This document shows positions 2,753-4,622 of a stretch of DNA of 12,248 nt, one piece after another. Each line of letters starts with the position of its first letter. Position 1 is the first letter of the stretch. The stretch spans positions 1 through 12,248 of IMG/VR virus record IMGVR_UViG_2617270998_000003; one strand, 5' to 3'. The notes under the pieces are model-generated. The model saw only the letters and a program-made list of their open reading frames with translations, was not told where the DNA came from and searched no databases. The stretch comes from a virus (taxonomy: Duplodnaviria > Heunggongvirae > Uroviricota > Caudoviricetes). The translations under genes and the position numbers were made by a program.

Positions 2753-3079
2753 ATGCCTCATAACCCAAATACCTGGCTGGAGTTGTTCCAGAGCTGGTGG
2801 CGTGGAGATACGCCTCTTGGCGCAGTGATTATGTCGATTGTTATGGCTGGATTGCGCATTGCCTATTTTGGCGGTGGTGGTGGGGGGAAGCGAAAAACGC
2901 TCGAGATTTTGCTCTGTGGTGCTCTGACGCTGACTTTTGCATCCGCTCTTGAGTATGTCGGATGGCCTAAATCACTTTCTGTTGCCATTGGTGGCGGTGT
3001 TGGGCTGATTGGTGTCGATGCAATTCGTGGGGCTGCAATGAGAGTGATCGGTAACAAGTTTGGTGGCTCTAAGGAGTAA
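2753..3079 (+). CDS. S: Holin, lambda S-like (class I, three predicted TMDs)
   Basis: 108 aa with hydrophobic segments and a charged C-terminus; resembles lambda S in architecture; immediately precedes the endolysin with stop 3077-3079 and the R SD AAGGAG at 3071-3076. Confidence 0.8.
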   Translation: MPHNPNTWLELFQSWWRGDTPLGAVIMSIVMAGLRIAYFGGGGGGKRKTLEILLCGALTLTFASALEYVGWPKSLSVAIGGGVGLIGVDAIRGAAMRVIGNKFGGSKE

Positions 3080-3082
3080 TTT

Positions 3083-3559
3083 ATGCAGATACTAAATTCC
3101 CAGCGTAAAGCTTTCCTGGATATGGTGGCATGGTCAGAAGGAACGGATAACGGGCGACAACCGACACATAATCACGGTTATGACGTTATTGTCGGTGGTG
3201 AACTCTTCACTGATTACTCCGACCACCCTCGCAAACTTGTCACGCTAAACCCAAAACTTAAATCAACGGCTGCTGGACGCTACCAGATTCTTTCCCGATG
3301 GTGGGATGCTTACCGTAAACAGCTTGGTCTGAAAGACTTCTCCCCCAAAAGCCAGGACGCAGTGGCATTGCAGCAGATTAAAGAGCGTGGCGCTTTACCG
3401 ATGATTGATCGCGGTGATATCCGTCAGGCTATCGATCGTTGCAGCAATATCTGGGCTTCACTGCCGGGTGCAGGTTACGGTCAGTATGAACATAAAATCG
3501 GTGACCTGATTGCCCGATTTAAAGAGGCTGGTGGGGGGGGAAATGAAGTTGAGTTATAA
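3083..3559 (+). CDS. R: Endolysin, lambda R-type lytic transglycosylase
   Basis: Near-identity over long stretches to lambda R as I recall it (QRKAFLDMVAWSEGTDNGRQ..., HGYDVIVGGELFTDYSDHPRKLVTLNPKLKST, RYQILSRWWDAYRKQLGLKDFSPKSQDAVALQQIKERGALPMIDRGDIRQAIDRCSNIWASLPGAGYGQ). SD AAGGAG 3071-3076. Confidence 0.95.
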   Translation: MQILNSQRKAFLDMVAWSEGTDNGRQPTHNHGYDVIVGGELFTDYSDHPRKLVTLNPKLKSTAAGRYQILSRWWDAYRKQLGLKDFSPKSQDAVALQQIKERGALPMIDRGDIRQAIDRCSNIWASLPGAGYGQYEHKIGDLIARFKEAGGGGNEVEL

Positions 3560-3977
3560 GCTGATTATCGCTGCTTTTTTCGTTACTGCCATTGGTTCTT
3601 TCATCTGGTCAGCCAGCTACTACTACAGCAAATATCAGTACGAAAAGAAACGTGCTGATGAGGCTGTACAAAATGCTGAATCAGCAACTGCCATTACCAA
3701 TAACGTCCTGCAATCAATGCAAATCGTCAATACAGTTTGGGAGGCTAACCAGCATGCAAAACAGCAGATCGCACTGGAGTCACAGAGAACCCAGGAAGAT
3801 ATCAAAGTGGCTGTTGCGGATGATGATTGTGCTTCACGTCCTGTGCCTGCTGCCGCTGCTGACCGGTTGCGAAAGTACGCGGACAGTTTACGTAACAGTA
3901 CCTCCAATTCCGCTTCCAGCTACTCTGACTTTGGAAACGCCAGTACCGCACATACCAGATACCCTGACCTATGGTGA
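3543..3977 (+). CDS. Rz: i-spanin (Rz-like), N-terminal TMD
   Basis: ATG at 3543 follows the G8 tract (3533-3540) and overlaps the 3' end of R; the track's 3510 start is a TTG inside R. N-terminal hydrophobic helix KLIIAAFFVTAIGSFIW and a charged, helical central region. C-terminal 25 aa are Ser-rich and atypical. Confidence 0.65.
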   Translation: MKLSYKLIIAAFFVTAIGSFIWSASYYYSKYQYEKKRADEAVQNAESATAITNNVLQSMQIVNTVWEANQHAKQQIALESQRTQEDIKVAVADDDCASRPVPAAAADRLRKYADSLRNSTSNSASSYSDFGNASTAHTRYPDLW

Positions 3978-4068
3978 CAGCCTGGAGTTGAATGTGAGTC
4001 TGTTGTCGGCGTTGGAACAGTGTAATTTTGATAAAGCGACAATAAAAAGTATTGATGCTAACAAGTAA
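3820..4068 (+). CDS. Rz1: o-spanin (Rz1-like) lipoprotein, +1 frame relative to Rz
   Basis: ATG at 3820 inside Rz; signal peptide MMIVLHVLCLLPLLTG|C with lipobox LTGC; Pro-rich mature region VPPIPLPATLTLETPVPHIP. Extends 91 nt past the Rz stop. Confidence 0.6.
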   Translation: MMIVLHVLCLLPLLTGCESTRTVYVTVPPIPLPATLTLETPVPHIPDTLTYGDSLELNVSLLSALEQCNFDKATIKSIDANK

Positions 4069-4130: not shown

Positions 4131-4622
4131 ATGATGGATTGGAATATGTGGTCTGCTATTGGGGCTTGTGGTTCGGCTATCGCGTCTTTTGGGGCGTTGT
4201 GTTATGCCCGTAAGGCGTTAAACACATGGAATAGACAGGAGCAATTTAAAGTAAAGTTAGAGTTTAAGAGAGCTTTACTTCAGTTGGAGGATGCCTTTGA
4301 GGCAATGCCTGATAATTGGAATTCCGTACAGTATAGAATAGCCAAAACATTTGCGTCTCAGCGGGGCAACGATATATATAATGGAGTTGTTGAGGCTGAA
4401 AAACAGCTGTTTTATAAAAAACAAAACCTTAATTTAGCGTACGGACATTCCGTACAGGCATGGGTTTTGTGTGAAGAACTGTTTAAAGACAATACTATTC
4501 ATGATGAATGGAAAGCTTTCAGAATTAGTTATGATAATTACATTCTGAATGGTGGGAACAAAAATGATTATTTGCCAATGATAAAAAATATATATTCAAA
4601 AATTCCTGTGTTTAATGGTTGA
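4131..4622 (+). CDS. Hypothetical protein, 163 aa, N-terminal hydrophobic helix; AT-rich insertion
   Basis: SD GGGAGG (4121-4126) then ATG 4131 (second ATG at 4134). N-terminus WSAIGACGSAIASFGALCYA is TM-like. About 35% GC. No family recognised. Confidence 0.6.
   Translation: MMDWNMWSAIGACGSAIASFGALCYARKALNTWNRQEQFKVKLEFKRALLQLEDAFEAMPDNWNSVQYRIAKTFASQRGNDIYNGVVEAEKQLFYKKQNLNLAYGHSVQAWVLCEELFKDNTIHDEWKAFRISYDNYILNGGNKNDYLPMIKNIYSKIPVFNG

Follow-up and report, generated by a model that had tools for sequence, protein, structure and literature searches.

LysB and LysC of phage P2 are the textbook example of overlapped spanin architecture. By the published definition (Summer 2007; Kongari 2018), an overlapped pair is one whose o-spanin gene begins within the i-spanin gene, in a different frame, and continues past its stop, whereas in lambda, which represents the embedded arrangement, Rz1 lies wholly inside Rz. 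Overlapped pairs are the commonest class, accounting for 228 of 528 two-component spanins (Kongari et al. 2018, PMC6139136); the same study lists SfIV and SfV as an i-spanin family and counts their o-spanins as members of the Mu family. Extension of an i-spanin by stop-codon mutation is also discussed there, with the remark that function can survive a small number of random additional residues, and loss of the i-spanin stop is proposed, only as a hypothesis, as a route from the overlapped to the embedded arrangement (Kongari et al., PMC6139136). The Mu proteins gp23 and gp23.1 have been shown experimentally to be spanins: amber mutants yield spherical cells, and lambda RzRz1 rescues a Mu 23.1 amber mutant (PMC9239132).

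Here we describe a spanin locus in a 12,248-nucleotide stretch of viral DNA (Caudoviricetes; IMG/VR record IMGVR_UViG_2617270998_000003), referred to in its entirety as the window. A first-pass annotation had found the C-terminus of its Rz atypical, and had proposed either a genuine overlapped layout with a long Rz1 or an indel that disturbed an ancestral arrangement. Our analysis makes it very probable that a functional two-component spanin is encoded here, one that belongs to the Mu/SfV family and has overlapped genes and an unconstrained Rz tail.

A complete lysis cassette ending in two spanin genes

Positions 2753-4068 of the + strand hold a complete lysis cassette in the order S-R-Rz/Rz1, with holin S as its first gene:

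2753..3079, + strand: holin S, lambda family (PF05106, E = 7e-24; TIGR01594 holin_lambda, 118 bits, cut-off 55)
3083..3559, + strand: endolysin R, lambda R-like transglycosylase (phrog_90 endolysin, E = 1e-61)
3543..3977, + strand: i-spanin Rz, 144 aa, ATG at 3543, stop TGA at 3975-3977 (phrog_214, DUF2570)
3820..4068, + strand: o-spanin Rz1, LysC-like lipoprotein precursor, 82 aa from the ATG at 3820 (PF23793, phrog_456)

The 3′ end of the R gene and the start of Rz share 17 nt; in relatives, R is annotated as endolysin, GH24 or GH104. On its 5′ side the cassette is preceded by DUF968, antiterminator Q and a reverse-strand KAP NTPase, and on its 3′ side it is followed by a phrog_6169 protein, an HNH endonuclease and terminase subunits, surroundings that are those of the late region of an enterobacterial prophage. 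Among complete E. coli genomes, the best match reaches 96.2% over the whole window and 93.6% over the spanin region. A search of NCBIfam returned no model matching Rz, Rz1 or R. Since both Rz and Rz1 match spanin families and sit directly after the holin and endolysin genes, they are real genes and not chance open reading frames.

In profile searches, Rz matches phrog_214 ('Rz-like spanin') with E = 2.2e-46 and, marginally, Pfam PF10828 (DUF2570; 27.2 bits at a cut-off of 26.6, residues 11-110), which is the precomputed domain in all close Rz homologues; its match to phrog_13, the other Rz-like i-spanin family in PHROGs, is weak (E = 0.0024). No exact match to the full-length window Rz was found, the best protein identity being 91-92%. 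The protein is laid out as an N-terminal transmembrane domain (TMD), a long periplasmic helix, Cys96, a second helix and a tail. The predicted TMD, at about residues 5-24 (YKLIIAAFFVTAIGSFIWSA), is uncharged and hydrophobic, is preceded by Lys2, and falls inside the first helix of an AlphaFold2 model, where the pLDDT is highest (78-84). This model, computed from a 14-sequence alignment, places helices at residues 2-93 and 103-123 with a break at 94-102, and drops below a pLDDT of 50 at 120-144; its overall confidence is low (mean pLDDT 62.8, pTM 0.24), so that it supports the picture of helices and tail only weakly. Cys96 (TGT, 3828-3830) is invariant and lies in the linker between the two helices. 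Rz has, then, the predicted N-terminal TMD of an i-spanin and, judging from the model, probably also the mostly alpha-helical, Cys-containing periplasmic domain. In the homologue alignment, conservation ends with ...YADSLR at residue 117, which puts the end of the conserved core (...DDDCASRPVPAAAADRLRKYADSLR) at about that residue.

Rz1 matches PF23793 ('Rz1-like lysis system protein LysC') with E = 1e-15 and 57.9 bits at a cut-off of 27, its residues 13-80 covering profile positions 2-67 of 69, and phrog_456 with E = 9e-24 in a profile search. The ATG at 3820 lies 277 nt (3x92+1) from the Rz start and hence in the +1 frame, which ends with TAA at 4066-4068. The start itself is ambiguous from sequence, as ATG 3820, TTG 3814 (MRMMIV...) and ATG 3754 are all in frame, the last giving the 104-aa form annotated in two relatives (P0121/P0122); all three candidates lead to an identical mature lipoprotein after cleavage at the Cys. 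Annotation pipelines assign this o-spanin many starts, including a 53-aa version without signal peptide or lipobox, and attach names such as 'peptidase' to it, a practical difficulty for annotation.

The candidate signal peptide has the h-region MMIVLHVLCLLPLL, followed by the lipobox:

3859..3870, + strand: Rz1 lipobox L14-T15-G16-C17 (LLTG/C), read from the sequence

The Gly and Cys of the lipobox are nearly invariant among homologues, and the same DNA also encodes the conserved Rz motif ...AADRLR.... Position +2 is Glu, not Asp, and is Gly in most relatives; as expected of an o-spanin, Rz1 thus carries a predicted lipoprotein signal lacking Asp at +2. Mature Rz1, 66 aa counted from Cys17, has 8 Pro, a Pro-rich N-terminal half and a conserved C-terminal helix, with Cys68 (TGT, 4021-4023) invariant in 23 sequences, and this is the short, Pro-rich periplasmic domain with a Cys that characterises o-spanins. 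The +1 frame ends ...LELNVSLLSALEQCNFDKATIKSIDANK, and the helical, Cys-containing end noticed there in the first pass is indeed present. It is the C-terminal domain of the o-spanin: LELNVSLLSALEQCNFDKATIK lies inside the PF23793 match, is nearly invariant in homologues from Escherichia, Citrobacter, Klebsiella, Leclercia, Lelliottia and Dryocola, belongs to the Rz1 core conserved in 22 homologues, and aligns to the corresponding part of Mu gp23.1.

The overlapped layout is shared by all related loci

The first pass had described an Rz1 with an LTGC lipobox and a Pro-rich sequence that starts inside Rz in the +1 frame and runs 91 nt past it, and we could confirm this: the Rz stop falls at 3977 and the Rz1 stop at 4068. 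The pair is accordingly overlapped and not embedded in the sense defined above. The overlapped layout proposed there stands as well; the further description of Rz1 as long does not, since at 82 aa it lies at the short end of the lengths annotated in relatives, mostly 81-115 aa.

To place this layout among relatives, we compared 86 fragments of 540 nt, comprising the window and 85 related loci from phage records, E. coli genomes, a Shigella genome and IMG/VR contigs; 57 of the fragments are distinct. Every one of the 86 is overlapped and none is embedded. The main layout classes are:

Rz of 130 aa, Rz1 running 157 nt past its stop: 36 of 86 fragments
Rz of 144 aa, Rz1 running 91 nt past its stop: 15 of 86 fragments, the window included
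Rz of 130 aa, Rz1 running 160 nt past its stop: 13 of 86 fragments

The remaining fragments fall into several minor layout classes, three of these fragments having a 126-aa Rz. By Rz length alone, 68 fragments have 130 aa, 15 have 144 aa and 3 have 126 aa; the protein search adds lengths of 125, 133 and 138 aa.

The layout of the window, with a 144-aa Rz and an overhang of 91 nt, comes from E. coli, Shigella and IMG/VR viral contigs. At the protein level, a 144-aa Rz with nearly the same tail occurs in E. coli (P0001, on 22 contigs), in Salmonella enterica subsp. salamae (P0002) and in S. Johannesburg (P0119), the last being only 70% identical overall. A search of genome contigs with Rz gave only two loci, which belong to the same Shigella flexneri genome. 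The PGAP annotation of E. coli BCE049 and FT130 contains a 435-nt DUF2570 gene and lysC. Close homologues with the same overlap and conserved termini, whose existence the first pass had named as the observation that would speak against a disturbed arrangement, were therefore found (P0001, P0002, P0119, L005, L006, L008, L010-L019). The 144-aa alleles of BCE049, FT130, Shigella flexneri SFBU0723 and the Salmonella salamae and S. Johannesburg prophages are identical to the window in architecture and share the tail NSTSNSASSYSDFGN[AST]STAH[TP]RY[PS]DLW; the window differs from the BCE049-type alleles in the 5′ two-fifths of Rz, which are of the 720R4 type instead.

SfV, SfIV, SfII and vB_EcoM-720R4 share with the window the S-R-Rz/Rz1 cassette, the +1 overlapped layout, the position of the lipobox and the cores of both proteins. 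They differ in having a 130-aa Rz whose stop lies 14 codons earlier, and in their Rz1 ends, which diverge after ...DKAGIR and are 3-8 residues longer than that of the window. The relationship extends to Mu, as BLASTP aligns Rz with gp23 (28% identity over residues 4-117, E = 4e-13) and Rz1 with gp23.1 (40% identity, E = 3e-14). The Mu pair, too, is overlapped, with an LLTGC lipobox lying over the i-spanin motif RPVPAxAADRLR as in the window, and each subunit has one periplasmic Cys in both systems. In Mu, however, the tail after DRLR is 16 aa long, compared with 34 aa in the window, the o-spanin overhang past the i-spanin stop is 202 nt as against 91 nt, and no holin is involved, a SAR endolysin being set free by gp25, whereas the window encodes a lambda-type holin and a soluble R-like endolysin.

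With lambda, the window shares the order of the cassette after S and R, the +1 frame of Rz1, the predicted topologies and presumably the mechanism; it differs in that Rz1 extends beyond Rz. In P2, lysC likewise begins within lysB, in a different frame, and its end lies 145 nt beyond that of lysB. Pairwise BLASTP found no similarity of the window proteins to LysB (E = 4.5) or LysC (E = 0.07, signal peptide only), and the links between the two pairs are the shared architecture and the match to the PF23793 LysC profile. We therefore dropped an assignment to the P2 family, despite the Pfam name LysC, and file the pair with Mu/SfV.

The Rz tail is shaped by the Rz1 frame

Two features describe the end of Rz:

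3894..3977, + strand: Rz tail, residues 118-144 (NSTSNSASSYSDFGNASTAHTRYPDLW), plus stop; delimited by pN/pS, codon-position diversity, pLDDT and the end of the Mu alignment
3933..3935, + strand: GGA codon (Gly131), alignment columns 391-393; a TGA stop in SfV, SfIV, SfII and vB_EcoM-720R4

The first pass had singled out the last 25 residues as Ser-rich. The segment (STSNSASSYSDFGNASTAHTRYPDLW) and its Ser-richness (7 Ser) are as described, the length being 26 residues and not 25. It was also correct that this C-terminus is unlike the end of a coiled coil, but the same is true of the whole family past about residue 117.

To compare selection in the two frames, we calculated pN/pS as Nei-Gojobori proportions on the 57 distinct sequences; the ratios below are descriptive and not a formal test, as overlapping frames bias them and the 57 sequences are phylogenetically related.

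Columns 1-276, Rz-only: Rz frame 0.35, Rz1 frame 0.54
Columns 277-351, dual-coding, end of the Rz core and Rz1 signal peptide plus lipobox: Rz frame 0.66, Rz1 frame 0.68
Columns 352-390, Rz tail and mature Rz1: Rz frame 1.44, Rz1 frame 0.43
Columns 391-432, tail extension of the window: Rz frame 1.97, Rz1 frame 0.29
Columns 433-504, Rz1-only: Rz frame 1.88, Rz1 frame 0.22

Codon-position diversity follows the same division. Columns 277-351 have the lowest diversity at all three codon positions, which we read as the signature of double constraint. In columns 328-390, diversity is 0.318 at Rz position 1, which is Rz1 position 3, and 0.181 and 0.152 at the others, the same pattern as in the Rz1-only region; over these columns, the Rz1 frame keeps a mean amino-acid identity of 0.77, compared with 0.60 for the Rz frame and 0.57 for the unused frame. 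Taken together, pN/pS, codon-position diversity, the AlphaFold2 model and the point at which the Mu alignment ends identify the Rz tail as unconstrained read-through. Past about residue 117, Rz is a family-wide unconstrained tail whose sequence is set by the Rz1 frame, and its Ser-rich character is that of a read-through of the DNA for Pro-rich mature Rz1, not of a damaged coiled coil. Because the Rz stop depends on Rz1 wobble positions, it drifts, being gained or lost through changes that are silent or tolerated in Rz1, and relatives show Rz lengths of 125, 126, 130, 133, 138 and 144 aa. The 144-aa allele of the window fits neutral drift of the i-spanin stop in an overlapped layout.

Alternative readings of the Rz terminus

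The unusual Rz terminus might also be read as the trace of an indel or frameshift, real or artefactual, which disturbed the ancestral layout and left the true Rz end as the Cys-containing segment of the +1 frame. While the Ser-rich, non-helical look of the tail would agree with this, as would a weak match of the Rz1 C-terminus to the C-terminal columns 137-175 of phrog_214 (E = 0.0015), which implies that some catalogued 'Rz' entries have an Rz1-type segment in frame, the nucleotide alignment with related prophage pairs that the first pass had suggested as a check leaves no room for an indel. The MAFFT alignment of the 57 distinct fragments contains zero gap columns, and the window aligns with SfV, SfIV, SfII and vB_EcoM-720R4 without gaps from the Rz ATG to column ~525, at 83-91% nucleotide identity. 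Rz in these four phages is 393 nt long and stops with TGA at columns 391-393; a single-base substitution of this TGA to GGA gives the window Rz its 14 additional codons, up to the TGA at 3975-3977. Furthermore, E. coli BCE049 and the window do not differ at a single base between Rz column ~254 and the start of the next gene, a span that takes in the Rz1 stop and the intergenic sequence. Since the overlap thus recurs unchanged in an independent complete genome, a sequencing artefact in it is excluded. The 5′ two-fifths of the window Rz are identical to the 720R4 type, with a mosaic junction between columns ~155 and ~254, and this switch from 720R4-type to BCE049-type Rz is ordinary phage mosaicism. 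Only one frameshifted relative turned up, APEC20/16, and its 1-nt insertion sits at column 67, in the TMD region and outside the overlap. The longest Rz among the 86 fragments has 144 aa, LELNVSLLSALEQCNFDKATIK was not found in the Rz frame of any relative examined, and this helical segment belongs to the lipoprotein family PF23793 and lies in the o-spanin frame in Mu gp23.1 as well. We consider the indel reading, including the proposal that an ancestral arrangement was disturbed, ruled out by the gapless alignments and the BCE049 identity, to the point of being extremely improbable. The phrog_214 match, together with the long open +1 frame (3592-4068), could also suggest a programmed +1 ribosomal frameshift in the overlap that yields an Rz-Rz1 C-terminal fusion besides the two separate products. 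Such a fusion was absent from the 120 Rz homologues listed, among which the 172-aa P0111 has an unrelated C-terminus, and no fused Rz was found in the loci or phage records inspected, nor could the profile match be traced to particular phrog_214 members. The Rz1 signal peptide and lipobox are conserved, as expected for independent translation, and frameshifting in spanin genes did not come to light in PMC6139136 or PMC9239132; the chance of such a mechanism operating here is vanishingly small.

A different question is whether the 14-residue extension (GNASTAHTRYPDLW) was selected because it adds a function to the i-spanin, such as tuning its contact with the o-spanin. Its recurrence could be taken in this sense, as the 144-aa allele is found in E. 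coli, Shigella flexneri and two Salmonella lineages, and its tail hardly changes even in P0119, whose Rz is otherwise only 70% identical. Yet the same DNA encodes conserved mature Rz1, which fully explains the conservation of the tail, and the pN/pS of columns 391-432 (1.97 in the Rz frame against 0.29 in the Rz1 frame) points the same way. The differences inspected within the 144-aa clade leave the Rz1 protein unchanged, and one alters Rz (Pro141 to Ser); the extension is also absent from most relatives, and the tail has a pLDDT below 50. A selected extension is thus very unlikely. We give a slim chance to the window being a natural intermediate on the way from the overlapped to the embedded layout, in which the extended tail might have begun to gain a role in contact between i- and o-spanin. 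The unconstrained tail, set by the Rz1 frame, remains the preferred reading.

Proposed mechanism

Homology to Mu gp23/gp23.1 suggests that Rz and Rz1 serve in disruption of the outer membrane. Rz would enter the inner membrane through its N-terminal TMD as a type II protein (N-in/C-out). After export, Rz1 would acquire its lipid at Cys17, undergo cleavage and move on to the outer membrane, a destination we infer because +2 holds Glu here and Gly in most relatives, and not Asp. Each protein may form homodimers, probably via Rz Cys96 and Rz1 Cys68, and the example of lambda Rz/Rz1 and Mu gp23/gp23.1 suggests that the two bind one another in a complex that spans the periplasm. Once the holin has freed the endolysin and murein is lost, the spanin complex would join the two membranes and complete lysis by destroying the outer one, through either fusion or disruption.

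At the DNA level, the locus falls into three zones. The first serves Rz only; the second is doubly constrained, by the end of the Rz core and by the Rz1 signal peptide and lipobox; and in the third, constraint comes from Rz1 only, with the Rz frame reading on to the next stop. As for the Rz1-binding surface, conservation points to the Rz core up to about residue 117 and not to the extreme C-terminus.

Lambda Rz and Rz1 contact each other through their extreme C-termini. Should the same be true of the window pair, a free-running Rz tail would be unexpected, which is a point against the present reading.

Implications

The pair is unremarkable within its spanin family, which is catalogued and whose biology is already known. 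The sole small point of note is that the window has the less common 144-aa Rz allele. The value of the comparison lies mainly in correct annotation: the part of Rz that is co-encoded with mature Rz1 is unselected in its own frame and its stop drifts, and an odd, low-complexity i-spanin C-terminus in an overlapped pair should not be taken for a frameshift.

Mosaic structure of the i-spanin gene

Over positions 3543-3800, when set against two related loci used for comparison (L001 and L005), the Rz gene of the window is a mosaic. Escherichia phage vB_EcoM-720R4 is identical to the window's Rz over alignment columns 1 to ~155, while a prophage of E. coli BCE049 is identical to the window from alignment column ~254 onward. 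This two-source pattern of identity implies a recombination junction within the stretch that codes for Rz alone.

Local sequence irregularities around Rz

Eight consecutive G residues (GGTGGGGGGGGAAATG, 3533-3540) lie directly 5' of the Rz ATG, within the final codons of the endolysin gene R. This run is unique to the window among the 86 homologous Rz/Rz1 fragments examined (1/86); relatives carry GGGGTGGTAA in its place, which has the same length and differs by two T-to-G substitutions, so that R ends in ...AGGGGNEVEL in the window but in ...AGGVVNEVEL in relatives. The run overlaps the presumed Shine-Dalgarno region of Rz, and could possibly be a homopolymer error or a slippage site.

In one related locus, from E. 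coli APEC20/16 (L007), a 1-nt insertion is present in the transmembrane-domain-coding part of Rz, at about 3210 of that locus (column 67 of alignment A3). PGAP marks this Rz as a frameshifted pseudogene, the one such relative found; it may be a prophage spanin gene in decay, or the insertion may stem from faulty assembly.

Annotation and C-terminus of the o-spanin

Database annotation of the Rz1 start varies between entries (3754-3820 in the window; 3508-3669 in each of the related loci L005 and L006), and many Rz1 entries are named 'peptidase'. The annotated forms are as follows.

Start forms of Rz1
104 aa: ATG at 3754, invariant, with GGAGG 10 nt upstream
84 aa: TTG at 3814 (MRMMIV...)
82-85 aa: ATG at 3820
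53 aa: PGAP 'LysC', start 3' of the lipobox; protein cluster P0206, 293 contigs

Because its start comes after the lipobox, the 53-aa form has no signal peptide.

The last 39 residues of Rz1 weakly match the end (positions 137-175) of the i-spanin profile phrog_214 (E = 0.0015), a similarity suggesting that some phrog_214 phage records contain C-terminal Rz/Rz1 fusions, the product of frameshifts or of wrongly called genes. The 86 fragments examined included no fusion of this kind.

Genes flanking the lysis region

Two further genes were assigned by profile matches.

Neighbouring genes
1124-2455, - strand: KAP-family P-loop NTPase, 443 aa (PF07693, E = 1e-70)
4131-4622, between Rz1 and the HNH endonuclease gene: protein of unknown function, 163 aa (phrog_6169, E = 1e-63)

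The phrog_6169 gene accompanies the allele with a 144-aa Rz and a short Rz1 in BCE049 and FT130, the two E. coli genomes for which the annotation was consulted (2/2). The NTPase gene sits between the antiterminator Q gene (713-1093) and the holin gene, on the opposite strand, a position between Q and holin being typical for a moron; its role may lie in defence or in another accessory function.
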